55,348 bases of DNA, taken from Fimicolochytrium jonesii. Lineage: Eukaryota. This document shows, one piece after another, positions 10,010 to 40,924 of this stretch. The notes beneath the pieces were generated by a model. That model saw nothing but the letters and a program-made list of their open reading frames with translations, was not told the DNA's origin and did not search any database. The stretch covers positions 744,001 through 799,348 of the forward strand of contig NW_026515679.1 in assembly GCF_025526975.1 (NCBI RefSeq). Reading direction: 5' to 3'. A program made the translations under genes and the position numbers. How positions within the stretch are numbered: position 1 is the stretch's first letter; each line of letters begins with the position of its first letter.

Positions 10010-11176
10010 ATGTCCGAATTTCTATTGAAAACCGCCGATTTGTCTCAATTTCTGGATCGTAATAAGGCTGATTTTGCGAATACTTCTAGAGAAGTTAAAC
10101 GATTTCAGCAACATGGAGTATTTGACTCGATTGAACGATTATCCGCTTTGAATGAAGTTAAAAGTCTGATCAATAAATCCAAAATCTCTGCTCGCACTCC
10201 GAACGGGATCTCGAATAAATCCATGTCCGATGCCATAGGTAAAGTCCACCGGATCTTCAAAAACGCGGGATATGAAAGATTGAATATAAGCCCCGAGTTA
10301 TTCGATAAGACGAGAAAGCCTTTGGCGGACGAATCTCACAGATTGAACAACGAATATAATGCGAGGAGACGTCAAGGAATTCAACCCGAAATTTGAAAAG
10401 AAGACTGGCAATCCGTTATGAAGGCAATGAAGAAGTATTATGAAGATAATCTTATGGAAATCTTCGATATGAACACTCCGAGTCTTTACCAGATTCAGTC
10501 CTTGCAAGATGGAATCATTGGGCTTTTCGTTTGTTATTTTTACAATGTTCGCGCGAACTTTGCAAACTTGAAAATATTCAATCGGGATGGCGTAGATTGG
10601 AATAAAGACAATATTTTCATCTTTGATCAAAGGGACCCGAAAAAGGAAGGAAATGCGTCAATCTTATGGAATGATCGAAAGGCTGATCGCATCAAGAAAA
10701 GAAAACTTGCGAAAATTGACGGAGTCGAGGATAAAGATCTGAACGGGTCGTATTTGCAGTTCTTTACCGCTCCGCCGCACAGCGATATTGTGGATGTGGA
10801 TCCTAAATACGTCTGTGACATTTTACTTCGATTTATTCAAAAGTTCCGCAAAGAAGGGAATCTGATCTTCCTGGATGCAAAAGGCAAGGAGTTCAAGATG
10901 GATACATTTCGAGAGCACATTCAAGCGATTATGGAAAAGGCATGCGGTCAAAAACATGGGATTCGTCTTTGTCGCAAGGTACAGATCACCCATCTCCGTA
11001 AAAATGGTATCTCGCGAGCCTCTTCCATTTTCCTAGCAGACAATTGCCACCACAATGAGGAGGAAAATCTGAACTACTGCAGTGATGCTGTTCCGAAACC
11101 TACTGCCGGTTCCTCTCAAACTCCCGCAGGCAGACCCGGAGCATTGATATTAGATCTTGGCTCCCATGTCGATTGA
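10010..11176 (+). pseudogene. Tyrosine-recombinase-like gene, disrupted copy
   Basis: Same as 18435-19571, but TGG ATT is changed to TGA AAA at 10394 and there is a +1 base near 11130. Confidence 0.8.
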
Positions 11177-12501
11177 CTTAATGGATAATTACGATATTTT
11201 ACTAAATATTCGACTATAGTCCTTTTGCCTACTTTTCTTGTTCGTTTATCTGCAATATATTCCACTTCATATTCTACGTCTTTGTTTAATCTCCCCGACC
11301 GCCTGGGAGGGGGTTGAATCGCTTCCTCTTCCTCGTCCTCTTCACCCTGTCCATCATCCGGTGGTTCAAGATTCTCTACAGTCCGTGGGCGTTCGATACG
11401 CTGGTAAGGTGTAGGTACAAGCAATAATTGCGATCTTGCAAAAAGTCCTTTCTCGATCGTCCCATCTTGACTTTTAAGTTTGTAGGATGGTAATTGATTT
11501 TCATATGGTGATGCCACCACACCTGCGATTGTGTATAGTTCCGGTGCAAAGTATCCTGTCCTGCTTGGTTTCTTAATGTTTGTTCCAGAATATGGAAACA
11601 CCTTTCTCACCGTTTCTCCAACCTTCAAAGTTGTTGCTCCACGAACATTCACACTTTTTGCCGCACGACGCAAAATATTACCACCCGCTTCTGAATGAGT
11701 CGCAGAATCTGGAGCAGATTCCTCTATTTCATCCGGTGATTTGCGCGTAGTCGAATTGAAAGTGGAATTCAACGAATCTATCAATCCGGGCAGTGCCGTT
11801 ACCCAGTCCTTGTTCCCTGTTGTTTCCATGAATATGGAGATCTGTTTACGAACAGATGCATTAGATCGCTCGATTATTCCATTCGACCATGGCTGATGTG
11901 GACGTGTTGTAAAATGTGGAACATTGATACTTTCTAAGTACTGGTCAAACACGTTTGCAAATTCGCCCCCATTGTCACTTACTAAACGCGTGAATGTCAT
12001 ATTGGGATTCTCCCTTATAATCTCGCGTAGTGCCCTTGTGCATTCCGCTGCTGTCTTTCCCTTTATCGCTTTTCCGTAGAGTTTTCTTGAAAATGTGTCA
12101 ATCATACTGAAAACCGCACTAAACCCTCTGTAAGAATCGCTTGACATATCCATTGTATCACATTGAAATGATCCTAATGAGGTAGAAACGATAGCACGTA
12201 CACCAGTCGCTCGAACGGGTCTCCTGAATTTCTGTGCTATCGGTTGTCTCGATAGCCAGTTCATTACTTGTCTTCGAGATATGTTATTTTGCGGATCTTT
12301 CCGCAACATGAAATATAGACGATCGCGTCCATAGAAGTTTCGTCCTTCATAGAATAATGCTTTCAGTTTCCCTTCTTGCTCCGGGGTTAACGGCGGAGTC
12401 ATTGATCTTTGCTTATTGACCAGAAATTTAATCAGTTTCTGGTCATTTTTGTCATTGTTCGGTAAAAATTGATAAAACACCTGAATCTTTTTCTCGGGCA
12501 T
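11116..12501 (-). CDS. rve integrase with C-terminal chromodomain (copy 1)
   Basis: FQCDTMD / SDNGGEF / NGIIERSN DDE triad plus chromodomain; last few residues altered by a frameshift. Confidence 0.9.
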   Translation of the reverse strand: MPEKKIQVFYQFLPNNDKNDQKLIKFLVNKQRSMTPPLTPEQEGKLKALFYEGRNFYGRDRLYFMLRKDPQNNISRRQVMNWLSRQPIAQKFRRPVRATGVRAIVSTSLGSFQCDTMDMSSDSYRGFSAVFSMIDTFSRKLYGKAIKGKTAAECTRALREIIRENPNMTFTRLVSDNGGEFANVFDQYLESINVPHFTTRPHQPWSNGIIERSNASVRKQISIFMETTGNKDWVTALPGLIDSLNSTFNSTTRKSPDEIEESAPDSATHSEAGGNILRRAAKSVNVRGATTLKVGETVRKVFPYSGTNIKKPSRTGYFAPELYTIAGVVASPYENQLPSYKLKSQDGTIEKGLFARSQLLLVPTPYQRIERPRTVENLEPPDDGQGEEDEEEEAIQPPPRRSGRLNKDVEYEVEYIADKRTRKVGKRTIVEYLVKYRNYPLSQSTWEPRSNINAPGLPAGV

Positions 12502-12670
12502 GAGACGCTCAGTAAAGAGGTCATGCTATATAGGCAAAGATTCGAAAAAGCCTGAAAATGCACAACCCAAAATAATAAAATGGCTCAGGAGTTTGGTCGC
12601 GCGGAAGTCTTTGTTGCTCAACTCGTAGAATAGTTTTTCGTCTTATTCAGGACGGAAATCTTGGAAATCT

Positions 12671-12880
12671 TCAAGCGGTCTTTTTCCGCCTAGTGACTTT
12701 TGGTTTTACCTGGTCGTCTAAAATCTTCTGTACCAATGCTTCTGCCATTTCCTTCTGTAAGGATTCGAGTATTTCTTTTCTGGAGTTTTCGTTAACGTCT
12801 AACCAAAGGCGATCTTGCGAAAGCGCTGCTAATACGGTGTCATACGTTTCCTTTGTTACAATTTCTGGTATATAGAACAT
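12671..12880 (-). CDS. Hypothetical 69-aa protein
   Basis: Identical in both PLV copies. Confidence 0.55.
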   Translation of the reverse strand: MFYIPEIVTKETYDTVLAALSQDRLWLDVNENSRKEILESLQKEMAEALVQKILDDQVKPKVTRRKKTA

Positions 12881-12901
12881 TTCTATTCAAAAACCAACAA
12901 T

Positions 12902-13612
12902 TTAAAAAAAGTCGTGAAACCCGTCTTTGTCGCAATACCGGTACATCGTTCGCGCATCATCCGCTGCCAAATTCACATATGCAAACGAATACGGCTCCTT
13001 TGTGCTTTCCGTTAGATACGATAGAACTTCTTTTTTTGTCTTGAACGCACTTGTCAATAATTTCGCCAAAGATTCCATATCCTCCGAATTATTCTTAAAG
13101 ATTATGAATTCTGTTGTGTTGTTCTTCATCTTTCGAGTCAGTTGACCGCTCACGGATTGGATACACACCATGGTGGAGCAGAGAAAGTGGCGTCCTTTCG
13201 TATAAAGTTTAGACAACTCTTTGTTCAACTCCTTCCCTTGAGCATTGTCACCAGCATCGTCGATATACAACAGCAAGGACTTTCCGCTTTCCGCCAGCAA
13301 CTTTTGATCTTCCAAAATCTCGGCTATCATTGTATTATTCACTTCGTCTGTGAAAAAGATGTTCCTGTGCTTAGTGCTCTGTGCCAATTGTTTTATGCTC
13401 TTATCGTACAAGACTGTATCTGACATTATTATCACTCTGTCAAACACTTTTGCATAAACGTCTTCGATCAATCCACATACAAGAGCGGATTTCCCACTTT
13501 TGCGCGGTGCGATAAGTGTACTACATATGGGAGGAGCCTGAATGTCGATCGGAATGATTTTGTTTCGAACCTCGTTTTTCTTTGGGAAGATCGGTTTCGG
13601 TTTGTAAGACAT
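12902..13612 (-). CDS. A32-like (FtsK/HerA) packaging ATPase (copy 1)
   Basis: APRKSGKS, LLYIDD, KGRH, CIQS motifs. Confidence 0.9.
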   Translation of the reverse strand: MSYKPKPIFPKKNEVRNKIIPIDIQAPPICSTLIAPRKSGKSALVCGLIEDVYAKVFDRVIIMSDTVLYDKSIKQLAQSTKHRNIFFTDEVNNTMIAEILEDQKLLAESGKSLLLYIDDAGDNAQGKELNKELSKLYTKGRHFLCSTMVCIQSVSGQLTRKMKNNTTEFIIFKNNSEDMESLAKLLTSAFKTKKEVLSYLTESTKEPYSFAYVNLAADDARTMYRYCDKDGFHDFF

Positions 13613-13635
13613 TAATTCTCTTACCTTATTACTTA

Positions 13636-14355
13636 ATGTATTCAGAAATTTTATACTCTAGTGTCTCCCAACGTACATACAACATCCAACCTAGACGGAT
13701 TGAGGCTTTCAAAATACTGAGCGTCTCTTTCCTTCAAGATTGGGACCTGGTTGAAAGTAACGTGAATGACACTATCGCATTTGCCCAACAAGGTTCGGAT
13801 ACCATCTTGTACGCAAAGATCCCAAATGGTAATTACTCGATCGTTGACTTCCCAAACGCTGTTTCCACCGCTATGAATAGCGCGGCTGGCTCTAATGTAT
13901 ACTCTGCTACATTCGATGGTGTGAGACGCAAGTTAACGGTAAATAGCAACTCTGTTCCTTTCAAGATACTTCCTGGCAATCGTGGGTCAACAGCCTATAT
14001 TCTTATGGGAATGTCCCGTCGAGCGGATATTGGATTCGGTTCCTCTCACGAGATGAAGAATCCTGTCAATTTAAGCGGTTCATATCCTGTCATTTTGACT
14101 TCCAACATTCAATGCAAAGGCACCCAGTACCTGACAGATTATAACGACAGCGCTCAATCAATCTGTTGCAGCATCGTACCTGATAGTTTTGGGGACATTG
14201 TACAATATGAGAATTCAGGCGAGTTTCTTCCCGTTGGACAGACCATATCTCAAGTCGAGTTTCATCTTATCAATTCCCTTACCGGAACAGAAGTATCATT
14301 GAATTCTCCTTTAAGTGTCAGATTTGCGATTCTTGACGATGCAGATGATCTTTGA
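13636..14355 (+). CDS. Minor capsid (penton) protein (copy 1)
   Basis: Same protein as 22059-22778. Confidence 0.7.
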   Translation: MYSEILYSSVSQRTYNIQPRRIEAFKILSVSFLQDWDLVESNVNDTIAFAQQGSDTILYAKIPNGNYSIVDFPNAVSTAMNSAAGSNVYSATFDGVRRKLTVNSNSVPFKILPGNRGSTAYILMGMSRRADIGFGSSHEMKNPVNLSGSYPVILTSNIQCKGTQYLTDYNDSAQSICCSIVPDSFGDIVQYENSGEFLPVGQTISQVEFHLINSLTGTEVSLNSPLSVRFAILDDADDL

Positions 14356-14409
14356 CCGCACCTATTTTCCTCTTTAATATTTTGTTTTCTTTATTAAAAC
14401 TCGTGTTAA

Positions 14410-14673
14410 ATGAGCGAAGATCCAAATCATTCGAGTGCCTCTGCCGATTCTCCTGCCAATACTGACACGGTACAAGAATCTGTACAAGATTCAATACCGG
14501 AGATTCGACCCCCTTCACCGAAGCCAGAGTCAAAACCTAAAAAACAAAGAACACCCGCACAGGAAGCGGCTTTAAAGAAAGCCGTCGCCACACGGAAAAA
14601 AAACTTGCAAGAATTGTCCGCTATGAAGAAAAAGGAAAACGAAGATAGAAAGATCCAAGAAGCGAAAAAACTT
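14410..14673 (+). pseudogene. K-rich protein truncated by telomere repeats
   Basis: Matches the first ~88 aa of 22833-23315, then reads into TTAGGG. Confidence 0.85.
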
Positions 14674-14938: not shown

Positions 14939-16670
14939 CAAGACCCCCTGGGTTGGGTTTTATTATTGGGTTGCCTGGAACCCTAGGGACTTAGAAATTT
15001 TCGGGTTTTCTGGCTTTTGGGTGTGTTCTACAGTTCGAATTTTTGACTCTGAGGGATGTAGTTGCGGGGGGTGTTGGGCACCTAAGCAAGTCGGGGAGGA
15101 CTAGGTGTGCAAGGGCAAGTGATGGGTCATATGGGCGGTGGTGCGGGTACGGGCGGCGGCAGGGGTGCCAATAGGGGGGGGGGTTTCCATAAAGGGGACA
15201 TATATGTTATATATACGTTATAGGACTTGTGCAAATTGGGATTCTAATAGTGCCGATCCGGAGTTGGCGTCCTAATTGAAAAGTTGGCCCCATATCATAT
15301 TCTCTAATTGAAGTACTCTCGGATTGGCAATCCGTGCGGAAACGGCTTCAGAAACTTAGAAAAACGAAATTTTTACGCGACGGGGGGTAAAAAGTTGGAA
15401 AATGTGGTGATATCTCAACATCTGGCTGACTATCCAGTGTAGAGCACTTAATGAAAGTTGATTGTAGCCTATGGTTTGCATAGCTGATGTGGTAGCAAAT
15501 CTTGTGTAACCTTGCTTTTGGCTGAAGAACAGGGCCCCTTTTCAATTCTCAAGTAGTGACCCCCAAGATCTCCTAACAAAAGACACGAGTACGTATGTGC
15601 AGGCAAAGGGGTTTGGCTGTGTTCTCCAGTAAATATTTTGTGATTCCGCTGTGCATCGTAGACTGTTTGTAGGACCGTTGCGGAATGTCATTTACCAAAA
15701 CTGTTGAACATTTTCCGGTTAAAGCAGTGTTCTACAGTTTGTCCATGCAGGTTAGAGCACGTGACCTGGGCTTGCTTGCAGGGTACGCAGAGTGAGAGGG
15801 TTGGGGTTAGAGATTTCCCAGATCACTTATTAAATTCAGCCAAACTGTCTCTGTCATGGAACATTTAAAATGGTGGAAAGTAGTATTGCATTTATTGATT
15901 TAGAGTACATTGGAAAAGCGCACATTCAGAAAAGGGTTTTGGTGTAAAGTTATCAACGACATTCAACAGTACTAAAGGACTTCCGCAAGCATGTCACGGA
16001 CTTGGTTCTGTCCAAAAGTCGTACGGCACTCAGGGTACCTGGCGCAGCGGAGACGGAAACGATGCTGACCGCCAATGCTATGAAAAGCTGAGCCTCCACA
16101 GTTGGGACATTGAAGCTGATCACGATGCTGATGGAAGAGTTCACGGATATTGCCAATGGGAGCAGCATCAGGCACTTCCCCATCCCCATGACCCCACCAA
16201 GCACGAGCAGGATCAATGACGGGTGCAATGCCTTTGAACCATCCGGGATTGAAACCAAAAGAGTTGAGAACATCTCGGAAGCGCTGACAGTCTGTCACAG
16301 TAGTCTGTCTATTGCGATCTCCTCTGAATAGAACTCTGGTGGCAGCGTCCATGATGCCATTGATGAGACTGTAGTACTCTTCCACCGGCACAAGCTTCAA
16401 GGAGTTTGCGCCCATGTGCTGGAAAATGGTCTCGATCTGGTCCAAATGGAGATTCAAAACCATCTGTTCCGCTGATTCCAACCTGGCGCACTGAACTCGC
16501 ACTTCAACTCGCATGCCAGTAATGTGGAGCGGGTGACTGTTGAGCCATTGACGTAAACCTCTCAGTGTCTCACTGCGATCCCCAAGGCTGGACTTGGTTT
16601 GGGGCATTCGCGAAGACAAAGTCGAAGAGTAGGCTTTGAGCGCATGAACAAGCTTTGGGTAGCAAGTAAC
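14939..16670. repeat. Telomere-associated element B, interrupted by PLV copy 2
   Basis: Starts GGGTTA|CAAGACC; near-identical to 53558-54974; carries a minus-strand ORF 3' end. Confidence 0.75.
15972..16670 (-). pseudogene. 3' part of element B ORF with C-terminal zinc ribbon; 5' end lost at the PLV junction
   Basis: Open frame ending ..CPNCGG..RLRCARYPECRTTF..; the ORF-finder start (16745) lies inside the PLV terminus. Confidence 0.55.
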
Positions 16671-17485
16671 TGTCACAGTCCACCCTATGGTATATACCAT
16701 AGGGTGGACTGTGACAGATCCTATAGTAAAAAAGAAGACTCCCATAGTAGAGAATGGACTGACCCATAGTTCGAAACTGCTCTGCCGGATCCCATAGTAA
16801 AAGAATTGTCACATATCATCTTATTCAACATTTAAACATCTCCCTTCACGACATCGGATCACGTGACGGCACATGACTTCTCTCCATTCATTTCGAGTCA
16901 CATTGCGTCATCTTCTGTCATTCCGCCGCTGTCCTGTCAACCGTCAATCCGTCACGCGTTCCCTCCATTCCGCTCATGACCGCCGCCATTCCTCTCAAAC
17001 CTCTTTAACTTAACCTTCGCCTCCGTCCACAGCCGTAGACACTTTCTTCACATCGTCCCTCTACATCCACCTCTTCATTCACTTATTCGTTTTTGTTAAC
17101 GTCAAATCTACCTAGTTGTTCTCCGATTGGTGACAAAGTGAAATAAGTTATACGACTTTTACACGTTGTCACCTTTCGGAGAACAAGAATGCTTCTCACA
17201 CGTTTCTCTTCGTTCCTCTTGGAAAAAAGAGGGAAAATAAATGACGCCTCCCCACCCACCCCTCCATTCACTCTTTCGTTTCTGCTACAGTCACATTCTA
17301 CCCAGTTGTTCTCCGATCGGTGACAAAGTGAAATAAGTTATACGACTTTTACACGTTGTCACCTTTCGGAGAACAACAATGCTCCTCACACGTTTCTCTC
17401 CGTTCCTCTTGGAAAAAAAAGGAAAAATAAATGACGCCTCCCCACCACCCCCTTCATCAATCCAATGAAGACCATATCTTATTCA
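16671..17485 (+). repeat. Left TIR (815 bp) beginning with a perfect 46-bp palindrome
   Basis: Reverse complement of 40925-41739. Confidence 0.93.
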
Positions 17486-17528
17486 AAACAATATTTACAA
17501 ATTGGGAAATACAGTCGCTTCTTAATCA

Positions 17529-18089
17529 CTAGTTTACAACGATGCTCTTCATCTTTTCAAGGATAAGGGATTGAATCGCATCGGTGCTTGGTACATAATG
17601 CAATCCAAGCGCGCATAGTTTTTGCTTTGACATTCCATCTATAATCCTGTACGGTTGAAGACGGAACTCCTTTCCCCTCACGGAGGCAACACCGCACATA
17701 TGCATGGTCACAATATCATACACTCGCCCGTTCTCGTCCTCTAACCACACATGTGCATCCACTCGATCGCCTCGGTTAAACTGATGAAATTCTGTCCACG
17801 TTTCTCCACCGTATTCAAAGAATGGCTTCGTACGACCTATGCCGAGAGAACCAGCAACGATCTTAAGGTTGAGATGTTTCCATCCGTCGTTGGCGTTCAC
17901 GGTGTTGTAAGCAAGGCATTGATGATCTTCGCAATAAATCCCCTTGCGTATTTCGTAAAATTCATGATAGACTTTTCGGGCAGAGGGGAAAAAAGGGCTT
18001 GGAACAAGAATTTTTTTGAATTGACTGCTCAACGTGTGTCCGATTTGCGCCATTGCCATCAATGCGAGTAGATTGCTTGTAAAATCCAT
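17529..18089 (-). CDS. 186-aa protein, possibly transglutaminase-like cysteine-protease fold
   Basis: HQCLAYN ... DAHVWLEDENGRVYDI resembles a Cys/His-x-Trp/Asp triad pattern. Confidence 0.45.
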   Translation of the reverse strand: MDFTSNLLALMAMAQIGHTLSSQFKKILVPSPFFPSARKVYHEFYEIRKGIYCEDHQCLAYNTVNANDGWKHLNLKIVAGSLGIGRTKPFFEYGGETWTEFHQFNRGDRVDAHVWLEDENGRVYDIVTMHMCGVASVRGKEFRLQPYRIIDGMSKQKLCALGLHYVPSTDAIQSLILEKMKSIVVN

Positions 18090-18434
18090 TTTGATTGGGA
18101 GTTTCGATTGGCGGTTAGGAGATCTGAATGTTTGAGGCCAAAAGTTTCCGTTAGTTTGACTTTATTTATAGAGGAAGAATGCTTCTCGATAGAGCATACG
18201 GATTAGCGGTCATCCATCTCGAAGCAACCCCTGAACGCATGAGCAGCGGTCATCCATCTCGAAACAAATCTTGGTGCGGGACCAGGACCAAATCCGATAA
18301 CAACTTACACTCGATAATAACTCCTGACGTCATCGGATTTTCATTATTGATAATAACCTAATTCACATAAAAGCGACCGCACTATAGGTTCCTAACTTTT
18401 TTCTTTCCTTATTTCAAAAGGAAACCTATTAAAT

Positions 18435-19571
18435 ATGTCCGAATTTCTATTGAAAACCGCCGATTTGTCTCAATTTCTGGATCGTAATAAGGCTGATTTT
18501 GCGAATACTTCTAGAGAAGTTAAACGATTTCAGCAACATGGAGTATTTGACTCGATTGAACGATTATCCGCTTTGAATGAAGTTAAAAGTCTGATCAATA
18601 AATCCAAAATCTCTGCTCGCACTCCGAACGGGATCTCGAATAAATCCATGTCCGATGCCATAGGTAAAGTCCACCGGATCTTCAAAAACGCCGGATATGA
18701 AAGATTGAATATAACCCCCGAGTTATTCGATAAGACGAGAAAGCCTTTGGCGGACGAATCTCACAGATTGAACAACGAATATAATGCAAAGAGACGTCAA
18801 GGAATTCAACCCGAAATTTGGATTGAAGACTGGCAATCCGTTATGAAGGCAATGAAGAAGTATTATGAAGATAATCTTATGGAAATCTTCGATATGAACA
18901 CTCCGAGTCTTTACCAGATTCAGTCCTTGCAAGATGGAATCATTGGGCTTTTCGTTTGTTATTTTTACAATGTTCGCGCGAACTTTGCAAACTTGAAAAT
19001 ATTCAATCGGGATGGCGTAGATTGGAATAAAGACAATATTTTCATCTTTGATCAAAGGGACCCGAAAAAGGAAGGAAATGCGTCAATCTTATGGAATGAT
19101 CGAAAGGCTGATCGCATCAAGAAAAGAAAACATGCGAAAATTGACGGAGTCGAGGATAAAGATCTGAACGGGTCGTATTTGCAATTCTTTACCGCTCCGC
19201 CGCACAGCGATATTGTGGATGTGGATCCTAAATACGTCTGTGACATTTTACTTCGATTTATTCAAAAGTTCCGCAAAGAAGGGAATTTGATCTTCCTGGA
19301 TGCAAAAGGCAAGGAGTTCAAGATGGATACATTTCGAGAGCACATTCAAGCGATTATGGAAAAGGCATGCGGTCAAAAACATGGGATTCGTCTTTGTCGC
19401 AAGGTACAGATCACCCATCTCCGTAAAAATGGTATCTCGCGAGCCTCTTCCATTTTCCTAGCAGACAATTGCCACCACAATGAGGAGGAAAATCTGAACT
19501 ACTGCAGTGATGCTGTTCCGAAACCTACTGCCGGTTCCTCTCAAACTCCCGCAGCAGACCCGGAGCATTGA
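18435..19571 (+). CDS. Divergent tyrosine recombinase-superfamily protein (candidate telomere resolvase)
   Basis: NVRANF (Arg I); GIRLCRKVQITH..LADNCHHNEEENLNY resembles HxLR..LGH..Y spacing. Confidence 0.65.
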   Translation: MSEFLLKTADLSQFLDRNKADFANTSREVKRFQQHGVFDSIERLSALNEVKSLINKSKISARTPNGISNKSMSDAIGKVHRIFKNAGYERLNITPELFDKTRKPLADESHRLNNEYNAKRRQGIQPEIWIEDWQSVMKAMKKYYEDNLMEIFDMNTPSLYQIQSLQDGIIGLFVCYFYNVRANFANLKIFNRDGVDWNKDNIFIFDQRDPKKEGNASILWNDRKADRIKKRKHAKIDGVEDKDLNGSYLQFFTAPPHSDIVDVDPKYVCDILLRFIQKFRKEGNLIFLDAKGKEFKMDTFREHIQAIMEKACGQKHGIRLCRKVQITHLRKNGISRASSIFLADNCHHNEEENLNYCSDAVPKPTAGSSQTPAADPEH

Positions 19572-20925
19572 TATTAGATCTTGGCTCCCATGTCGATTGA
19601 CTTAATGGATAATTACGATATTTTACTAAATATTCGACTATAGTCCTTTTGCCTACTTTTCTTGTTCGTTTATCTGCAATATATTCCACTTCATATTCTA
19701 CGTCTTTGTTTAATCTCCCCGACCGCCTGGGAGGGGGTTGAATCGCTTCCTCTTCCTCGTCCTCTTCACCCTGTCCATCATCCGGTGGTTCAAGATTCTC
19801 TACAGTCCGTGGGCGTTCGATACGCTGGTCAGGTGTAGGTACAAGCAATAATTGCGATCTTGCAAAAAGTCCTTTCTCGATCGTCCCATCTTGACTTTTA
19901 AGTTTGTAGGATGGTAATTGATTTTCATATGGTGATGCCACCACACCTGCGATTGTGTATAGTTCCGGTGCAAAGTATCCTGTCCTGCTTGGTTTCTTAA
20001 TGTTTGTTCCAGAATATGGAAACACCTTTCTCACCGTTTCTCCAACCTTCAAAGTTGTTGCTCCACGAACATTCACACTTTTTGCCGCACGACGCAAAAT
20101 ATTACCACCCGCTTCTGAATGAGTCGCAGAATCTGGAGCAGATTCCTCTATTTCATCCGGTGATTTGCGCGTAGTCGAATTGAAAGTGGAATTCAACGAA
20201 TCTATCAATCCGGGCAGTGCCGTTACCCAGTCCTTGTTCCCTGTTGTTTCCATGAATATGGAGATCTGTTTACGAACAGATGCATTAGATCGCTCGATTA
20301 TTCCATTCGACCATGGCTGATGTGGACGTGTTGTAAAATGTGGAACATTGATACTTTCTAAGTACTGGTCAAACACGTTTGCAAATTTGCCCCCATTGTC
20401 ACTTACTAAACGCGTGAATGTCATATTGGGATTCTCCCTTATAATCTCGCGTAGTGCCCTTGTGCATTCCGCTGCTGTCTTTCCCTTTATCGCTTTTCCG
20501 TAGAGTTTTCTTGAAAATGTGTCAATCATACTGAAAACCGCACTAAACCCTCTGTAAGAATCGCTTGACATATCCATTGTATCACATTGAAATGATCCTA
20601 ATGAGGTAGAAACGATAGCACGTACACCAGTTGCTCGAACGGGTCTCCTGAATTTCTGTGCTATCGGTTGTCTCGATAGCCAGTTCATTACTTGTCTTCG
20701 AGATATGTTATTTTGCGGATCTTTCCGCAACATGAAATATAGACGATCGCGTCCATAGAAGTTTCGTCCTTCATAGAATAATGCTTTCAGTTTCCCTTCT
20801 TGCTCCGGGGTTAACGGCGGAGTCATTGATCTTTGCTTATTGACCAGAAATTTAATCAGTTTCTGGTCATTTTTGTCATTGTTCGGTAAAAATTGATAAA
20901 ACACCTGAATCTTTTTCTCGGGCAT
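19525..20925 (-). CDS. rve (DDE) integrase with C-terminal chromodomain
   Basis: FQCDTMD, LVSDNGG, NGIIERSN; YEVEYIADKR..EYLVKYRNYPLSQSTWEPRSNI. The true start may be the downstream MTPPLT. Confidence 0.93.
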   Translation of the reverse strand: MPEKKIQVFYQFLPNNDKNDQKLIKFLVNKQRSMTPPLTPEQEGKLKALFYEGRNFYGRDRLYFMLRKDPQNNISRRQVMNWLSRQPIAQKFRRPVRATGVRAIVSTSLGSFQCDTMDMSSDSYRGFSAVFSMIDTFSRKLYGKAIKGKTAAECTRALREIIRENPNMTFTRLVSDNGGKFANVFDQYLESINVPHFTTRPHQPWSNGIIERSNASVRKQISIFMETTGNKDWVTALPGLIDSLNSTFNSTTRKSPDEIEESAPDSATHSEAGGNILRRAAKSVNVRGATTLKVGETVRKVFPYSGTNIKKPSRTGYFAPELYTIAGVVASPYENQLPSYKLKSQDGTIEKGLFARSQLLLVPTPDQRIERPRTVENLEPPDDGQGEEDEEEEAIQPPPRRSGRLNKDVEYEVEYIADKRTRKVGKRTIVEYLVKYRNYPLSQSTWEPRSNINAPGLLREFERNRQ

Positions 20926-21093
20926 GAGCGCTCAGTAAAGAGGTCATGCTATATAGGCAAAGATTCGAAAAAGCCTGAAAATGCACAACCCAAAATAATA
21001 AAATGGCTCAGGAGTTTGGTCGCGCGGAAGTCTTTGTTGCTCAACTCGTAGAATAGTTTTTCGTCTTATTCAGGACGGAAATCTTGGAAATCT

Positions 21094-21303
21094 TCAAGCG
21101 GTCTTTTTCCGCCTAGTGACTTTTGGTTTTACCTGGTCGTCTAAAATCTTCTGTACCAATGCTTCTGCCATTTCCTTCTGTAAGGATTCGAGTATTTCTT
21201 TTCTGGAGTTTTCGTTAACGTCTAACCAAAGGCGATCTTGCGAAAGCGCTGCTAATACGGTGTCATACGTTTCCTTTGTTACAATTTCTGGTATATAGAA
21301 CAT
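21094..21303 (-). CDS. Hypothetical 69-aa protein
   Basis: Conserved in both copies, tightly packed behind the ATPase. Confidence 0.55.
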   Translation of the reverse strand: MFYIPEIVTKETYDTVLAALSQDRLWLDVNENSRKEILESLQKEMAEALVQKILDDQVKPKVTRRKKTA

Positions 21304-21324
21304 TTCTATTCAAAAACCAACAAT

Positions 21325-22035
21325 TTAAAAAAAGTCGTGAAACCCGTCTTTGTCGCAATAACGGTACATCGTTCGCGCATCATCCGCTGCCAAATTCACA
21401 TATGCAAACGAATACGGCTCCTTTGTGCTTTCCGTTAGATATGATAGAACTTCTTTTTTTGTCTTGAACGCACTTGTCAATAATTTCGCCAAAGATTCCA
21501 TATCCTCCGAATTATTCTTAAAGATTATGAATTCTGTTGTGTTGTTCTTCATCTTTCGAGTCAGTTGACCGCTCACGGATTGGATACACACCATGGTGGA
21601 GCAGAGAAAGTGGCGTCCTTTCGTATAAAGTTTAGACAACTCTTTGTTCAACTCCTTCCCTTGAGCATTGTCACCAGCATCGTCGATATACAACAGCAAG
21701 GACTTTCCGCTTTCCGCCAGCAACTTTTGATCTTCCAGAATCTCGGCTATCATTGTATTATTCACTTCGTCTGTGAAAAAGATGTTCCTGTGCTTAGTGC
21801 TCTGTGCCAATTGTTTTATGCTCTTATCGTACAAGACTGTATCTGACATTATTATCACTCTGTCAAACACTTTTGCATAAACGTCTTCGATCAATCCACA
21901 TACAAGAGCGGATTTCCCACTTTTGCGCGGTGCGATAAGTGTACTACATATGGGAGGAGCCTGAATGTCGATCGGAATGATTTTGTTTCGAACCTCGTTT
22001 TTCTTTGGGAAGATCGGTTTCGGTTTGTAAGACAT
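21325..22035 (-). CDS. A32-like packaging ATPase
   Basis: Walker A APRKSGKS, Walker B LLYIDD, arginine motif KGRH, Q sensor CIQS. Confidence 0.92.
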   Translation of the reverse strand: MSYKPKPIFPKKNEVRNKIIPIDIQAPPICSTLIAPRKSGKSALVCGLIEDVYAKVFDRVIIMSDTVLYDKSIKQLAQSTKHRNIFFTDEVNNTMIAEILEDQKLLAESGKSLLLYIDDAGDNAQGKELNKELSKLYTKGRHFLCSTMVCIQSVSGQLTRKMKNNTTEFIIFKNNSEDMESLAKLLTSAFKTKKEVLSYLTESTKEPYSFAYVNLAADDARTMYRYCDKDGFHDFF

Positions 22036-22058
22036 TAATTCTCTTACCTTATTACTAA

Positions 22059-22778
22059 ATGTATTCAGAAATTTTATACTCTAGTGTCTCCCAACGTACA
22101 TACAACATCCAACCTAGACGGATTGAGGCTTTCAAAATACTGAGCGTCTCTTTCCTTCAAGATTGGGACCTGGTTGAAAGTAACGTGAATGACACTATCG
22201 CATTTGCCCAACAAGGTTCGGATACCATCTTGTACGCAAAGATCCCAAATGGTAATTACTCGATCGTTGACTTCCCAAACGCTGTTTCCACCGCTATGAA
22301 TAGCGCGGCTGGCTCTAATGTATACTCTGCTACATTCGATGGTGTTAGACGCAAGTTAACGGTAAATAGCAACTCTGTTCCTTTCAAGATACTTCCTGGC
22401 AATCGTGGGTCAACAGCCTATATTCTTATGGGAATGTCCCGTCGAGCGGATATTGGATTCGGTTCCTCTCACGAGATGAAGAATCCTGTCAATTTAAGCG
22501 GTTCATATCCTGTCATTTTGACTTCCAACATTCAATGCAAAGGCACCCAGTACCTGACAGATTATAACGACAGCGCTCAATCAATCTGTTGCAGCATCGT
22601 ACCTGATAGTTTTGGGGACATTGTACAATATGAGAATTCAGGCGAGTTTCTTCCCGTTGGACAGACCATATCTCAAGTCGAGTTTCATCTTATCAATTCC
22701 CTTACCGGAACAGAAGTATCATTGAATTCTCCTTTAAGTGTCAGATTTGCGATTCTTGACGATGCAGATGATCTTTGA
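22059..22778 (+). CDS. Minor capsid (penton, single jelly roll) protein
   Basis: 239 aa, beta-rich, IPNGNYS motif typical of PLV/Polinton pentons; lies between ATPase and MCP. Confidence 0.7.
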   Translation: MYSEILYSSVSQRTYNIQPRRIEAFKILSVSFLQDWDLVESNVNDTIAFAQQGSDTILYAKIPNGNYSIVDFPNAVSTAMNSAAGSNVYSATFDGVRRKLTVNSNSVPFKILPGNRGSTAYILMGMSRRADIGFGSSHEMKNPVNLSGSYPVILTSNIQCKGTQYLTDYNDSAQSICCSIVPDSFGDIVQYENSGEFLPVGQTISQVEFHLINSLTGTEVSLNSPLSVRFAILDDADDL

Positions 22779-22832
22779 CCGCACCTATGTTCCTCTTAAA
22801 TATTTTGTTTTCTTTATAAAAACTCGTGTTAA

Positions 22833-23315
22833 ATGAGCGAAGATCCAAATCATTCGAGTGCCTCTCCCGACTCTCCTGCCAATACTGAAACGGTACAAGA
22901 ATCTGTACAAGATTCTATACCGGAGATTCGACCACCTTCACCAAAGCCAGAGTCAAAACCTAAAAAGCAAAGAACACCCGCACAGGAAGCGGCTTTAAAG
23001 AAAGCCGTTGCCACACGGAAAAAAAACTTGCAAGAATTGTCCGCTATGAAGAAAAAGGAAAGCGAAGATAGAAAAATCCAAGAAGCGAAACAACTTCTTG
23101 AAAAGGAGAAACTCGCAAAGAAATTGGCGAAAGAGGAAAAGGCTAAATTAAAGCCGCAAACATCACAAACCGCTAAACGGGCACGTTCAATCAAAGTTCC
23201 ACATAATGAACCGACTGCAATTCGGTCAAAACCAAGTCAAGAAACGGAATATGTTGAGTTTGACACTGACTACGACGATGATGGCTACGACGATTACGGT
23301 GGAATTTATGGCTAA
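22833..23315 (+). CDS. Lys-rich protein with acidic tail, possible DNA-binding core protein
   Basis: KPKKQRTPAQEAALKKA basic coiled region, DTDYDDDGYDDY tail; located in the capsid module. Confidence 0.55.
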   Translation: MSEDPNHSSASPDSPANTETVQESVQDSIPEIRPPSPKPESKPKKQRTPAQEAALKKAVATRKKNLQELSAMKKKESEDRKIQEAKQLLEKEKLAKKLAKEEKAKLKPQTSQTAKRARSIKVPHNEPTAIRSKPSQETEYVEFDTDYDDDGYDDYGGIYG

Positions 23316-23341
23316 TTTTTTTTTTGTACTTATTAGTAAAC

Positions 23342-24582
23342 ATGTCTGTACCTAACAACTGGCTGTTTGCTACGAAAACTTTCTCCCGCCCGTACAGCGA
23401 CCCACGAGGGGAAGGAGTGGCTACTTTTTCGCCTTCGGGTCAAAATGTGTATTCTACGAAAACGCGTCAGTTGACACCTATTAGAATCCAATGCGATTCC
23501 AATTCTGTCTCGTTCATTTTACAAAAGTTGATTCTTTCGATGGACGTCACGGCTTTGAAGAATAATGCTCCTGTATCTGGGTCTGGAATCGTTAATACCA
23601 AACTTGGTATCGAATCTATCATACAATCGCTCACAGTTAAAGCAGGTAACGAAACAGTGGTTCAGATCCCGAATTATCCTGCGTACCTTGTACAAACGTA
23701 CAGAAATATGAGTAAAGGCCATAAACAACTACTTGGAAATCTGACTGGTTATGGTTCCACTGATATGTTCAGCGGAACTGCTACAGCCAGCGTTAGCATG
23801 CACCCATGGGTCGGATTCTTTCATCCAACAAACGATCATTTTCTGCCGGTCTGGGCACTCCCGAATCAGGCCATGACCATCGAGTTGGTACTTGCAGATC
23901 CCAATACAGTTTTCACAAGTGCTGGAGTAGTTGATGAACTTCAAATCAGCAACATTCGTTGCTTGGTGCCTTACGTACCCCACCTCCGTCGATCGTTGTC
24001 AATGCTACAAGAGCAATTGCTGATGGGAAGAGTATCTACTATGATTATGTTCGCGCAACTCAAACGGAAAACGCATGTAGCGGTGGCTTGAGAAATACTT
24101 TTAACCTGCATATGTCTGGCGTCAGATCCCTTATCGGATTGGAAATGTCATTTATAGACGATGATGTGCTTGCAGATCAAACTAAGGACAAGTCACAATC
24201 ATTCTCATCTCAAAATCTAAGAGAATGGCGGCTCCAATTAGGACCAAATGCGACAATTCCAAGCGGTCTAACTGGTTTTACTCACGGGCCTTATGATCGT
24301 CAAACGCTTCTTGTTTCCCAACTGAGCAACAACGACTTTGAGCAACTTGCTGATATGGACATTTCATTCAAAGACTATGATACCGCAAATTTCTCGTTTT
24401 CTTACGGTTTTGAAGACAAATCCGAAGGAAGTGGGGCCGCTTTGAGTTTTACGGGAACCGACTCCATACTTCGAGTGCACACCGTACATGCGTCTCCGGC
24501 TCCAAGTCAACGAGTTAGACTTCTCAGTACATATCATGAGAATGTTACCTTGGCAATCGGGGATGTAGTCAGCGTTGTATAA
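23342..24582 (+). CDS. Major capsid protein (double jelly roll), split by one frameshift near 23980
   Basis: GIESIIQSLTVKAGNETVVQIPNY, FLPVWALPNQAMTIELVLADP and ISNIRCLV match PLV MCP patterns; two overlapping ORFs total ~410 aa. Confidence 0.8.
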
Positions 24583-24859
24583 TTACCATAACCTCCATCT
24601 CTATCAAGCAAGTCCCGAATTGTTTCAACGATTCAAATGGCACCTAGTTGTTCTCCGAAAGGTGACAACGTGAAATAAGTTATACGACTTTTACACGTTG
24701 TCACCAATCGGAGAACAAGAATGTTCAGTTTGGAAAAAGACGGAAAAATAAATGACGCCTCCCCCCTGTCAAAGCGCGTTTACGTAATATCGCCGACTAC
24801 ATTCCTTTGGAACCACCGATTTCCACAAGAATGTCCAAACATAAGAACTCTTCAACAAA

Positions 24860-27016
24860 ATGGCTCTCGCCATTCATGAAGCAAACATCGACCCATCTTA
24901 TTTCATTATCAATCCTGATGTCGGAGACGGGTTCTTCAAGACCTGCATTGCTTTGCATCACATACTGGATGCGAAATTATACAAGGTTTCGTATCCTGCA
25001 GCGGACGATTATTTGAAAGCGAGATGGAAACTTTCGAGAGCGGCCGGTTACAACTTTTCCCGCGCCGGACGAATTATTATTCAAATGGGGAAAACACTCG
25101 GTCGGGACGAAATGCCCTGCGCTATCGGGCTTTATCTCATGTTGGATAAACTTCACAAAGAGCGAAATTTGACTCATGTTGAGATATGGAGAAAGGCGGT
25201 TCAATACTTTGGCTCTCGTCAAATGGTCATTGCGGTCAAAATGGATGAAATATTTGAAGACCTACCACCCGATTCCGCCATTGACCTTTCGGGCGAACCC
25301 GGTCTCCAGTTGGACGATACCACTCGCACAGAGATAGATGAAGAGATAGATGAAGATACAGATGAAGATACAGAGATTGAAGATGTGATCGAAAATGAAA
25401 GGGATACGAACGAAGTAGATTGGAGTTCCCGATTAAGAAAGCGAAAAGAGGTTACTCAAGACACCTCAGACGAAGATGATTCGGAGACTACCAAACGACC
25501 GAATATTCCGATATCTACTGGATTTGGAAGATCCGAAAACGAGTATAATACGCCCCAATATCTGGTGAATCTGATCACCAAATTTTGTGGCGAAATTGAT
25601 CTTGATCCGTGCTGGAATCCCGAGTCAAAGATCATTGCAAAAACCGTATACGGTGAACAAGTCGACGGAACATTTGTCAACGCTTTGACGTTGTCTGATT
25701 GGACAAAAAGCAATTGGGTTTATCTTAATGCACCTGGTGCTGCAATCGACGCTCTACAACATGGTCCGAAAACTTCTGCGAAAAGACCTTACCTCCATAA
25801 CGACTTTTGGGAAAAGACAATGTTGGAAATGAAAAAGGGAAACATCAAACGGATCATTGCAATCATTCCGAATTGTCCATACCGGAAATGGTGCAGGTTC
25901 GCCCTCGCACGGGGACTTTGTTGCCACCTTACGAGAAAAGTCCCGTGGGATAAAACGGCCGCTGCAAAGGTTCGAATGGACGACATGCGATTTTCGGCAA
26001 AGAATTCACATATCTCGAACGATGTCTATTCACGCACGATCGTGTATATTGACTCGGATGCAGACTATCCACATACAGATAAATTCATCGAGGTCTTTCG
26101 AACCCATGGATTTATTCCCGGATTAAATACGCGCATACCAAGGATTCTGGAGATTTCCGAGAAAAGACCATTGCGGTACTTTTCTGCCTTTGCTGGAATC
26201 GGTGGTGCCGAAATGGCATTAAGAAATATCTTTCCCGAAGCCATTTGCGTTGGCTTTTGCGAGACAGATAAAGACGCTTTAAAAGTTTATGTTGAGCATC
26301 ATCCTCGACATAAAAACTTTGGAGACATCACCAAAATCAAAACAAATACCATACCGGATTTTGACCTGTTAATCGGAGGTCCTCCGTGTCAACCTTTTTC
26401 GCTTGCCAATCCGGGAAAAACTAAATTCACCGATCCTCGGGCGGATTTGTATACACAATTCGTCAGAATCCGCAACGACTGTCAACCCCAATATGTGATT
26501 ATGGAAAACGTTCCTATGGATTCAGCAAGCATTGCGGAGATCTCGAAAGGACTTTTGTCTACGACGGTGCAAAAACTCAATGCCGCGTCGTTTTGTGCAC
26601 AAAATCGAATCCGTTTATACTGGACAAATTTCTTTGTTCCGGAACCTTTGGATGTGCCTTCGCCGACAATTGACAGTATAGTAGAACCCAATCATTCCGG
26701 AAAGTCGCTCCATTGGAAATGCTTCAAACAACCTCCTCCCCCAGATCTCATTGCCGCGTTCAACAAGGACACGGTGGAGCAAACAGTGAAATTTCGGGAC
26801 GATGGAAAAAGTAACACCATCATAGCGACCGAGTGTTATGAATTGGCTATCGCTGCAAATGGAGTATTCAGGCTTTTGACCTGCTCGGAACGCGAGAAGT
26901 TACAAGGGTTTCCCGTGGGATATACCGCATTTGTCCCGGATAAAAGTAGAAAGCGATTACTTGGAAACGCTATGAACGTACCTACAATCGAGTACATCCT
27001 AAAGCACATCCCCTGA
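24860..27016 (+). CDS. Fused DNA methyltransferase: N-terminal helical domain + phage Dam-like N6-adenine MTase-like domain + C5-cytosine MTase
   Basis: NEYNTP..IDLDPC..VYLNAPG; then FAGIGG, GGPPCQPFS, MENV, QNRIRLYW, REKLQGFP, LGNAM. Confidence 0.88.
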   Translation: MALAIHEANIDPSYFIINPDVGDGFFKTCIALHHILDAKLYKVSYPAADDYLKARWKLSRAAGYNFSRAGRIIIQMGKTLGRDEMPCAIGLYLMLDKLHKERNLTHVEIWRKAVQYFGSRQMVIAVKMDEIFEDLPPDSAIDLSGEPGLQLDDTTRTEIDEEIDEDTDEDTEIEDVIENERDTNEVDWSSRLRKRKEVTQDTSDEDDSETTKRPNIPISTGFGRSENEYNTPQYLVNLITKFCGEIDLDPCWNPESKIIAKTVYGEQVDGTFVNALTLSDWTKSNWVYLNAPGAAIDALQHGPKTSAKRPYLHNDFWEKTMLEMKKGNIKRIIAIIPNCPYRKWCRFALARGLCCHLTRKVPWDKTAAAKVRMDDMRFSAKNSHISNDVYSRTIVYIDSDADYPHTDKFIEVFRTHGFIPGLNTRIPRILEISEKRPLRYFSAFAGIGGAEMALRNIFPEAICVGFCETDKDALKVYVEHHPRHKNFGDITKIKTNTIPDFDLLIGGPPCQPFSLANPGKTKFTDPRADLYTQFVRIRNDCQPQYVIMENVPMDSASIAEISKGLLSTTVQKLNAASFCAQNRIRLYWTNFFVPEPLDVPSPTIDSIVEPNHSGKSLHWKCFKQPPPPDLIAAFNKDTVEQTVKFRDDGKSNTIIATECYELAIAANGVFRLLTCSEREKLQGFPVGYTAFVPDKSRKRLLGNAMNVPTIEYILKHIP

Positions 27017-27020
27017 TGCT

Positions 27021-27320
27021 TCATTCGATCGTCCCGCCTTGTACTTTATCTAAGAAATCCTGACCTTGTCTATTAATCTCATCGAGTCTGTGAATCCCCT
27101 TTGTTGCAGTGGAATCCACTCGACGCGAAGTTTCTTTGATCTTCTCGTTGAAGAGTGGAGATTCTTGCACAGCATTGTTAACGTTTGTGATGAATTTTGC
27201 GCTTTTATGTCCCACCTTCACAGCGTTGTTTGCAAATGAACGCGCCTTGTGATAATAACTTGGAGCATTGGTTATAAAAGTATTCGCTTTTTTTTTCAGA
27301 TTGTTCAAGAAATTTGCCAT
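27021..27320 (-). CDS. Hypothetical 99-aa basic amphipathic protein
   Basis: ORF fills the gap between the MTase and the 500-aa gene. Confidence 0.6.
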   Translation of the reverse strand: MANFLNNLKKKANTFITNAPSYYHKARSFANNAVKVGHKSAKFITNVNNAVQESPLFNEKIKETSRRVDSTATKGIHRLDEINRQGQDFLDKVQGGTIE

Positions 27321-27369
27321 GTCTGTTATTGTACATAGACACAGAATTAAATTTGATGCCTTTAGATAA

Positions 27370-28872
27370 ATGGCATTCTATAAAGCAAACGTGCTAGAAT
27401 TCCAAGGGATCAACCGCTCAAAAGGAATCCCGAATCTCCAGCGTCACCAAATCGGACGAGCCCTTGACTATAATAATCTAGATGAGAATGGAAGGCCAGA
27501 TGTCGTTTATTCTTGGAATAGAAACATCCACGACAAAGATCTTGCAACCAAAACACATTATGTCAAACCAGTTTATGAAGAGCGTGTTTCCAGCGCCGAA
27601 ATCCTCCGGTTATCTGCAAAACAGCACTATACCCAAGCATACAAAGATGGTCTAGAATATATCAAAGCCGAGAAAGACTATCGCGCTAAAGAACGATATC
27701 TGGATAGCATCACACCATCTCGGCGAAACAAGACCGTCACAATTGGGACAAGCACATCAACGAGTGGCCTTCCCGTCCCCGACACGGAAGGTCGGGTTTA
27801 TAACTATGATGCGCAAACAACTGCGCAAACAGGCTTGATGTTTGAAGCACCGGCTAACCTACATGACGTCCCAGATTTGCCCAAAAATGTGTCCGGTCAA
27901 CGTGTCCACCCAGTTATAATCACGCACGAAAAAGAGATCGTTGTTGATAACCTTACTGGAGCAGCCCAAGTCAAAACCGGAAGTTCCTCTGTTCTTAAAG
28001 CACCTGTTGTAAGCAATTCTCTTGATTATCAAGAGCCAATGATGCCCGGATCGTTTCCTAATATGATCGGAAAAGATGAAGTTAAAATTGAAAATAACAT
28101 ACCTCCGGAGATCAATATTGGGAATGAAAGAACAGAAAGCAAACCAGGGGTCGCTTTGACCACCATCAGCGACCCGAATAAGGTTGAGGAACTCTTATCA
28201 AAAACACAAGTTACGAGTAATCTCGTTCGAACCCCTGGAAAGACGCCTATTGGAAATGTGAGGAAAGATCGTCGTTTTGATCCGACCAAACGAAGAATAA
28301 AGAACAGATTAGAAGACTCACTATTGCAATCCACACTTAACAAGCAGGAATTGGTAGGATTTTCTGATGGAATTAACATTGAGGTACACGATGATGGCGC
28401 AGCAAGACGGAGATTGTCCGCACTCGCTAAAGATAACACAATCCCATCACCAAAACCCCAAGCCCGAATCGGTGCTCGCACTGATGAGTTAGCCATTAAT
28501 CCCGCTGTTAAACGAAAAGCGGAGGTTTCTCTAAGAAAGGAACCGTCATCAAAGCGACGAAAGATTGATGATGCAGACGAAATTCAATTAATAGATCCAA
28601 AAGTTTTGGAACGATCTAGAATGCATCGAATAGTTCAAGCAAATGTTGGAGTTGAGACCATTGTTGATCCAGTGGCTTCCCGTGTTAAGAAACAAGAAAA
28701 AGCCTCATTCTTGCGTCCTATCGCAAATCTACGCGGAAAGGAAAGAATCGATTATGCGATACCTCCAACATTTACCGTCGCGGATGTTGAACCTACTGTA
28801 AGCATCCGAAAACGCCCTACAAAAACGCAACAAATGCCCACTCGACCTGTCAAAAAGGTCAGAATTGACTGA
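27370..28872 (+). CDS. Hypothetical 500-aa protein, largely low-complexity with basic NLS-like C-terminus
   Basis: Long ORF with TAAATG start; PSSKRRK and PVKKVRID motifs. Confidence 0.75.
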   Translation: MAFYKANVLEFQGINRSKGIPNLQRHQIGRALDYNNLDENGRPDVVYSWNRNIHDKDLATKTHYVKPVYEERVSSAEILRLSAKQHYTQAYKDGLEYIKAEKDYRAKERYLDSITPSRRNKTVTIGTSTSTSGLPVPDTEGRVYNYDAQTTAQTGLMFEAPANLHDVPDLPKNVSGQRVHPVIITHEKEIVVDNLTGAAQVKTGSSSVLKAPVVSNSLDYQEPMMPGSFPNMIGKDEVKIENNIPPEINIGNERTESKPGVALTTISDPNKVEELLSKTQVTSNLVRTPGKTPIGNVRKDRRFDPTKRRIKNRLEDSLLQSTLNKQELVGFSDGINIEVHDDGAARRRLSALAKDNTIPSPKPQARIGARTDELAINPAVKRKAEVSLRKEPSSKRRKIDDADEIQLIDPKVLERSRMHRIVQANVGVETIVDPVASRVKKQEKASFLRPIANLRGKERIDYAIPPTFTVADVEPTVSIRKRPTKTQQMPTRPVKKVRID

Positions 28873-28971
28873 ATTTATGGATTTACATTCAGTGACATAA
28901 CGCGTTTCAAGTTGTCATAAACGGGATTGCTAAAATGCAACTTAAATAGATACGTTTCTGATGGTCTAATT

Positions 28972-40876: not shown

Positions 40877-40924
40877 TTGCATTGTACCGCAGCGCAAAAT
40901 CTTGTAAATAATGTTGTAGTGTTG

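Follow-up and report, generated by a model that had tools for sequence, protein, structure and literature searches.

A perfect terminal palindrome and a convergent integrase–tyrosine recombinase pair in a Polinton-like provirus of Fimicolochytrium jonesii: a candidate site for end resolution and release

How do proviruses bounded by terminal inverted repeats (TIRs) copy their ends and leave the chromosome when they lack a DNA polymerase of family B that is protein-primed (pPolB), and why do some of them carry two integration enzymes? A Polinton-like virus (PLV) integrated in the genome of Fimicolochytrium jonesii bears on both questions. It lies in a 55,348-nt stretch of contig NW_026515679.1 (positions 744,001 to 799,348; hereafter the window), which holds one full-length provirus (copy 2) and the left part of a second one (copy 1; Table 1). 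We observed that all three virus ends in the window carry the same perfect 46-bp palindrome and that the element encodes an rve integrase as well as a tyrosine recombinase (YR). We tentatively propose, as a possibility somewhat short of probable, that the terminal palindromes are the unfolded hairpins of the free genome, that the rve integrase joins their CA ends and that the YR acts on the palindrome for release or end resolution.

The palindrome has no loop, its central 6 bp (TATATA) are self-complementary, and replication of a hairpin end yields just such a loop-free palindrome. The runner-up among the perfect palindromes of the window measures 14 bp, and 100 order-1 Markov simulations of the window produced palindromes of at most 24 bp; at copy 2 the symmetry extends to 48 bp through chance pairing of a flank base. 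Copies 1 and 2 have unrelated flanks and their identity begins at the outer TG, so the left terminus is fixed at TG...CA; both the palindrome and this sharp limit of homology were correctly described in the earlier note on this DNA. The body of copy 1 is 99.1% identical to copy 2 over the shared part, and the left and right TIRs of copy 2 show no difference over the first 815 aligned columns. Between the two copies the palindrome is invariant, although their terminal repeats have diverged from each other at 15 of ~815 positions. An inverted repeat of this kind, with a self-complementary central 6 bp, is the substrate form of telomere resolvases according to the available part of PMC3558466, and it offers a candidate site for the YR.

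The window represents a chromosome end, in which 19 TTAGGG tracts, all on the plus strand and the last one continuing past the window edge, alternate with repeated subtelomeric units. With its length, its TIRs and the TTAGGG tracts around it, copy 2 agrees in size and setting with an integrated Polinton-like element of a eukaryote (15–40 kb, TIR-bounded). The earlier note had counted three virus ends. The same palindrome is indeed present at all of them, but the third end copies the second: the left flank of copy 2 and the reverse complement of its right flank are identical at 720 of 720 bases, and we rejected the third end as an independent junction. The left flank is host DNA, because the same sequence recurs without the virus further along the window; the right flank is its inverted copy, so the true right flank has been lost and no target-site duplication can be read. 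Since copy 1 has no right end either, and stops in a telomere tract with a TT microhomology at the break, only two virus–host junctions are independent, both of them left ends. The order of flank, virus, inverted flank and telomere might have arisen through breakage at the right end, or close to it, and subsequent copying from the left TIR by fold-back, or alternatively through inverted sister exchange and later bridge breakage. A cut in the palindrome could have started the flank inversion, but ordinary recombination between the TIRs equally could, so that the layout is not decisive. An assembly artefact is a highly improbable source of the palindromes or of the symmetric layout. It is true that repeat copies in the window show indel-type differences, that a capsid gene is split and that a mis-join through the terminal repeats could have produced the 720-bp inverted flank; however, two different host flanks reach the same palindrome at the same base, and the inverted flank meets the telomere repeats at a 2-nt TA microhomology, like de novo healing.

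The claim of an rve integrase with a convergent, overlapping YR-like gene was also borne out. The integrase matches the rve and chromodomain families of Pfam, the second gene product has a YR fold, and the two genes overlap by 47 bp in copy 2 and by 61 bp in copy 1 (a 1-bp indel). A word-index search with the YR found no relatives, whereas a HMMER search gave 25, making a family set of 26 sequences. In this set R181 is kept in 25 of the 26, K224 in 24, R322 in 23, and H347 and Y356 in 21 each; all five residues are present in 19 members, and five of the other seven are truncated or gapped there. Tyrosine recombinases usually carry an HxxR motif, the first His of which is replaced by variable residues in the alignment of the 26. 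With R, K, R, H, Y and the fold, the protein has the tyrosine-recombinase-type catalytic domain that characterises telomere resolvases as well. Structural searches with its model (pLDDT 88.7) placed XerH, XerA, Cre and the Tn1549 and lambda integrases at the top (Z 12–14.4). XerH reached a VIA Z of 14.2–14.3 (root-mean-square deviation 4.7–4.9; 284–285 aligned residues) and Cre/Tre one of 13.3–14.1, while type IB topoisomerases, at Z about 10.5, fell below the Cre/Xer group. A profile search of the PDB with the family returned an integrase (E 2e-4) and XerA, and three of the 26 members gave weak matches to the Phage_integrase family of Pfam; matches of the single YR sequence to ERH in the PDB (E 0.12–0.16) were judged to be chance. 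Every named YR homologue comes from a chytrid genome or a chytrid virus (9 of 20 looked-up clusters are named), with homologues in Thoreauomyces, Spizellomyces, Phlyctochytrium, Powellomyces, Rhizophlyctis and Geranomyces. Taken together, the YR is, as modelled, an active-looking Cre/Xer-type recombinase and not a member of the TelN/ResT family.

In agreement with the earlier note, no PolB family was matched among 19 window proteins compared with Pfam or 9 compared with PHROGs, and HUH or junction-resolvase families were likewise without a match among the proteins scanned against the two databases. The YR is therefore the sole recognised cut-and-rejoin candidate besides the integrase. The element falls outside the strict Polinton/Maverick definition, which rests on pPolB, and its replication gene is instead a fusion with a UL9-like helicase, a domain that, as the family name tells, herpesviruses also use. 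In PHROGs this protein matched one family only, that of RepA from the hairpin-ended phage N15, and the link is a weak one (E 2e-11). A linear genome without a terminal protein needs another solution for its ends, and the gene content supports an end mechanism that is independent of PolB.

Six relative loci (L001–L006) represent five distinct contigs, among them one of 1.4 kb (L001) and a virophage-like element cut inside its integrase (L005 and L006). The most informative is L002, of which 20.3 kb out of 23.4 kb were examined (3,112 bp lie outside). Its ATPase is 32% identical to that of the provirus, its replication protein is the same protein (36% identical), its YR belongs to the same family as the copy 2 YR (hhalign 99.8%), and its rve and YR genes converge tail to tail as in copy 2. 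Judged from these sequences, the convergent integrase–YR pair is conserved in this distant relative. No PolB-like open reading frame (ORF) was seen among the 23 listed for L002, 6 of which were scanned. L003 (8763–11353; about 4,000 bp of its contig lie outside the examined part) is an AT-rich PLV from IMG/VR with an adenovirus-type protease and a canonical YR directly before an rve-chromodomain integrase, and is unrelated to the window provirus. No relatives came from locus scans of prokaryote genomes, of phage records, of metagenome contigs queried with the integrase, or of viral contigs queried with the replication protein and with alignments of the ATPase, YR and integrase.

In the cycle that we propose, the free genome would replicate from internal origins via its primase-helicase, and hairpins instead of a terminal protein would solve the end problem. 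The integrase would cut one strand after CA, at 23 nt past the apex, and strand transfer with fill-in would write the whole palindrome into the provirus. For exit, the YR would cut the palindrome near its TATATA centre and might then follow either of two routes. It may reseal each half as a hairpin, a telomere-resolvase chemistry that would have been arrived at independently, or it may join the two terminal palindromes by recombination, which would give a circle whose long inverted arms enclose a single palindrome. The 1.7-kb palindromic junction of such a circle would readily resolve to hairpins, nicks by the integrase at both CA steps of the circle would again give each end the full palindrome, and solo palindromes would be expected as footprints. 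The same provirus results from both routes, and sequence cannot separate them. The circle fits the modelled fold of the YR better, whereas direct hairpinning fits the perfect symmetry, because a symmetric site gives a recombinase no direction. The inference of hairpin unfolding and YR excision made earlier thus stands in its geometry, since nicking after CA at this distance from the apex, with strand transfer and fill-in, gives exactly this end, but not in its exclusiveness: the same end follows from Cre-like circle excision, and the YR is not a protelomerase. Action of the YR at the palindrome by one or the other route may well occur, though we stop short of calling it probable, and direct hairpin formation by the YR is doubtful. 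We regard as similarly doubtful the wider idea that YRs beside rve in PolB-less PLVs and virophages form a second, independently evolved telomere-resolvase lineage on a Cre/Xer scaffold, making hairpins and releasing the provirus, with an integrase that opens the hairpin 23 nt from its tip and a YR that replaces the terminal protein. Should the YR indeed act on the palindrome, the element would add to eukaryotic viruses a new family of recombinases that form hairpins or excise, and to the retroviral-type integrases a new substrate; if not, it is an ordinary new member of the palindrome-ended PLVs.

Several observations weigh against this cycle. TelA (Z 7.0–7.5, root-mean-square deviation 8.0–9.1) and TelK (Z 6.7) scored lowest among the structural relatives of the YR, the profile of the YR gave no match to N15 TelN (probability 0.4%, with a single-sequence template), and resolvase families of Pfam were matched at E<=1 by none of the 26 family members. 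The link of the replication protein to N15 RepA was reproduced neither with the L002 homologue nor pairwise. A perfect palindrome longer than 18 bp was found in none of the five relative contigs, whose examined parts lack recognisable ends. The overlap of the integrase and YR genes is not conserved, with a 65-bp gap in L002 instead, and we rejected it as meaningful. Just two independent junctions are at hand, and no target-site duplication can be read from them. In the available part of a preprint on Halocafeteria seosinensis (bioRxiv 10.64898/2026.07.28.741278), RVE together with YR is reported for a subset of virophages and for no PLV, even though palindromes occur in PLV subtype 4; a YR that diverges as strongly as the present one might have escaped notice there. 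The view printed for such YRs, in the accessible text of that preprint and of PMC8547959, is integration, for example into giant-virus genomes, and a Phytophthora PLV with YR/helicase is listed, in the part of the source available, with a 7-bp target-site duplication.

The protelomerase-like nature that the earlier note had suggested for the YR is not upheld by these structure and profile comparisons, and Foldseek likewise placed Cre (TMq 0.40–0.48) before TelA (0.32–0.35). Membership in the protelomerase family was accordingly rejected. A long helix (residues 95–121) precedes the catalytic domain in the model, with Y116 in 17 and R120 in 21 of the 26 members at the spacing of TelA Y201/R205; telomere resolvases bear a hairpin-binding module in a linker helix between domains, but the helix seen here may merely correspond to the last one of a Cre-type binding domain. 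The modelled Cre/Xer fold lowers the case that the YR is a telomere resolvase, and less so the case that it works like one, because two substitutions make TelA Cre-like and ResT does both reactions. According to the available part of PMC13221069, two point mutations turn TelA into a Cre-like recombinase and ResT performs both the telomere-resolvase and the recombinase reaction, so that fold class does not fix the product.

A rival explanation, which is serious but on the unlikely side, is that hairpin or self-priming ends are real and the YR is unrelated to them. The YR would then serve as an additional integrase, directed at a giant helper virus, and the ends would be handled by fold-back priming and a junction resolvase of the host or helper, in line with suggestions in the Halocafeteria preprint and in virophage papers. 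The Cre/Xer-like fold of the YR agrees with this, as do its best viral structural matches, uncharacterised proteins from giant viruses, in a list where an EhV resolvase comes 45th. Palindromes without a reported rve–YR pair in Halocafeteria PLV subtype 4 and the view stated in the available text of PMC8547959 point the same way, and the AT-rich centre of the palindrome would probably extrude a cruciform. However, such a division of roles leaves unexplained why YR and pPolB loss go together in Cafeteria virophages and why L002 and L003 retain the YR beside the integrase, and no helper virus is known from the window.

Two further alternatives turn on the internal repeats of the element. Copy 2 holds eight imperfect inverted repeats of ~73 bp, one listed in Table 1 and the others near 17115, 17305, 24647, 29481, 32945, 41033 and 41223; in copy 1 they lie at 8861 and 9051. 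Each is built from 25-bp arms around a ~21-bp spacer, with an AT-rich centre, and is followed downstream by a box that stays constant; the copies have exchanged arm variants, and L002 keeps the repeat (15931–15997 and 20249–20268) upstream of its UL9-like helicase gene. All of them share the hexamer TGTCAC with the terminal palindrome, and 20 of its 32 occurrences in copy 2 fall within internal repeats or termini. We consider these repeats candidate replication origins or transcript-end hairpins. It is very improbable that the YR acts on them, in dimer resolution or cassette shuffling, rather than on the termini. Their arms, the swapped variants, the conservation in L002 and the different genes that the two copies hold in the slot beside the YR would suit such a role; on the other hand, sites of the loxP/dif type have a spacer of 6–8 bp, far narrower than here, the position of the repeats by gene ends and upstream of the helicase would better fit origins or terminators, and it is another repeat that borders the variable slot. 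Improbable, to a lesser degree, is a free genome that is open-ended or a stable circle, in which the palindrome would be a symmetric binding site for integrase or helicase, or a fixed fold-back accident. Recurrence of the TGTCAC box in every internal repeat is what a protein-binding site would show, and accidental annealing is named as an alternative in the available part of the Halocafeteria preprint. Against this stand the constancy of the palindrome between copies with diverged terminal repeats, the end solution that a linear PolB-less genome still needs, and the recurrence of palindromic ends in unrelated hosts in the published material available.

The remaining features of the locus are collected in Table 1. 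Of 14 ATPase homologues, 12 carry PF04665 or come from named chytrid elements, which identifies the enzyme as A32-type, and all named ones belong to chytrid genomes or chytrid viruses; together with the YR homologues this points to a chytrid as the host. Both halves of the split capsid gene match a 412-aa ORF of L002, and no C5-cytosine methyltransferase gene was seen in the 20.3 kb examined there. The YR gene of copy 1 (10010–11176) is broken by a stop, and the copy 2 integrase differs at one conserved core position from copy 1 and all homologues; these two changes and the capsid split may reflect decay or assembly error. Between the left TIR and the YR the two copies hold unrelated genes (9267–9689 and 17529–18089), and the slot looks like a swappable cassette. 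A second repeat family, near 9806, 18233 and 40227, adjoins this slot and also flanks small genes at the right end. The subtelomeric units (7072–8416, 14672–16670 and 42458–55348) start at a telomere tract and stop at variable points in the next one; both proviruses are located inside them, and one unit has a minus-strand ORF (15972–16670) with a zinc-ribbon-like end. These units have the look of telomere-capped retroelement fragments.

Table 1. Coordinates of the proviruses, their ends and genes in the window
Feature	Position	Strand	Remarks
Copy 2, full-length Polinton-like provirus	16671..41739		25,069 bp, 43% GC
Copy 1, left part of second provirus	8417..14671		6.3 kb, palindrome 8417–8462
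Left terminal palindrome, copy 2	16671..16716		perfect, 46 bp, TG...CA, centre TATATA
Right terminal palindrome, copy 2	41694..41739		identical to left
Left terminal inverted repeat, copy 2	16671..17490	+	~820 bp
Right terminal inverted repeat, copy 2	40920..41739	-	~820 bp
Tyrosine recombinase	18435..19571	+	378 aa; R181, K224, R322, H347, Y356; Cre/Xer-like fold in the model
rve integrase with C-terminal chromodomain	19525..20925	-	homologues suggest Met34 as start
A32/FtsK packaging ATPase	21325..22035	-	76% identical to FtsK of Powellomyces chytrid fungus MELD virus 2
Probable minor capsid (penton) protein	22059..22778	+	from position and likeness to an L002 ORF; no family match
Probable major capsid protein	23342..24582	+	two ORFs in the assembly; Capsid_N E 0.019, weak
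DNA methyltransferase gene	24860..27016	+	718 aa, C5-cytosine domain at 425–717; N-terminal half unassigned
Internal ~73-bp imperfect inverted repeat	29701..29783	-	one of 8 in copy 2
Replication protein	29935..32910	+	991 aa; UL9-like origin-binding helicase domain; N-terminal primase domain by motifs, no family match
Putative fibre-like protein	33108..39818	+	2236 aa; no Pfam match
Host subtelomeric flank left of copy 2	15951..16670	+	part of a unit recurring virus-free at 53520–54974
Inverted copy of left flank, right side of copy 2	41740..42459	-	exact copy, capped by TTAGGG tract

Comparison with known systems, made on the parts of the cited sources that were available, shows which pieces of the proposed cycle have precedents. 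The closest are the elements of Halocafeteria seosinensis (bioRxiv 10.64898/2026.07.28.741278), where palindromes sit at the TIR tips of virophage subtypes 1, 2, 5 and 6 and of PLV subtype 4, are 52 nt long in subtype 5, and occur preferentially on RVE-bearing elements without pPolB; the hairpin is proposed there to prime replication. The Fimicolochytrium provirus shares with them the palindrome at the TIR tip, a replication gene other than pPolB, the RVE integrase, the subtelomeric place and the hairpin model, and some of the virophages there have RVE together with YR. Host and capsid lineage are different, the YR is proposed there to integrate into a giant virus, and the preprint, as far as available, proposes neither a resolvase role for the YR nor an unfolding step by the integrase.

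Among chytrid elements, the Powellomyces chytrid fungus MELD viruses (PMC8502044) and chytrid PLVs (PMC7805220) resemble the provirus in their ATPase, their YR homologues and their non-PolB replicases; termini or an end mechanism are not discussed in the available text of these papers, and no chytrid entries were found in the accessible supplements of PMC8502044. The mid-GC virophages of Cafeteria burkhardae (EMALE; PMC8547959) also combine rve and YR with a primase/helicase and TIRs in the absence of pPolB, although they have virophage capsid genes, and the word 'palindrome' does not occur in the available main text. All of these mid-GC virophages lack pPolB and carry rve and YR, so the YR tracks the loss of the polymerase and not that of the integrase.

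With TelN, TelK, TelA and ResT the provirus shares the catalytic fold and tyrosine chemistry of its YR, a palindromic site and a helicase in the PHROG family of N15 RepA, whereas the YR itself is closer to Cre/Xer than to TelA or TelK. In the portion of PMC13236599 available, the phaeovirus resolvase of Ectocarpus endogenous viral elements is an earlier case of a eukaryotic virus that integrates and has fold-back reads at a palindrome, but there the YR integrates, a separate true resolvase acts at an internal site, and no rve is placed at terminal palindromes. The end modules of PLVs associated with entomopoxviruses (PMC11296320) resemble the present element in having a YR and a primase-helicase near inverted repeats, and according to the available text the authors suggested that the YR might resolve dimers by acting on the hairpin ends of the poxvirus; unlike here, the YR is seen as a replacement of rve in those modules, while the Fimicolochytrium provirus keeps both and has a perfect terminal palindrome. 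HIV-1 integrase, moreover, can cut a palindromic junction internally, as stated in the available part of PMC1905944.

The earlier note knew of no described cycle of this kind for PLVs. Searches of the literature covered, which leaves out subscription journals, brought up no cycle at a terminal palindrome with an integrase for entry and a YR for exit, the suggestion for entomopoxvirus ends being the nearest, and the available parts of PMC12945077, PMC11161782, bioRxiv 2025.10.09.676808 and bioRxiv 2026.06.19.733378 contain nothing on hairpin ends of PLVs. A role of the YR at such palindromes did not turn up in that literature, but palindromic ends and a hairpin model on rve-bearing elements without pPolB are already in the 2026 preprint. 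Likewise already known are the combination of rve and YR in virophages, a true resolvase in phaeoviruses and, as an idea floated for entomopoxviruses, YR activity on hairpin ends. What is new against the literature covered, as a hypothesis, is the joining of these parts into one cycle in which an integrase brings the element in and a YR takes it out.

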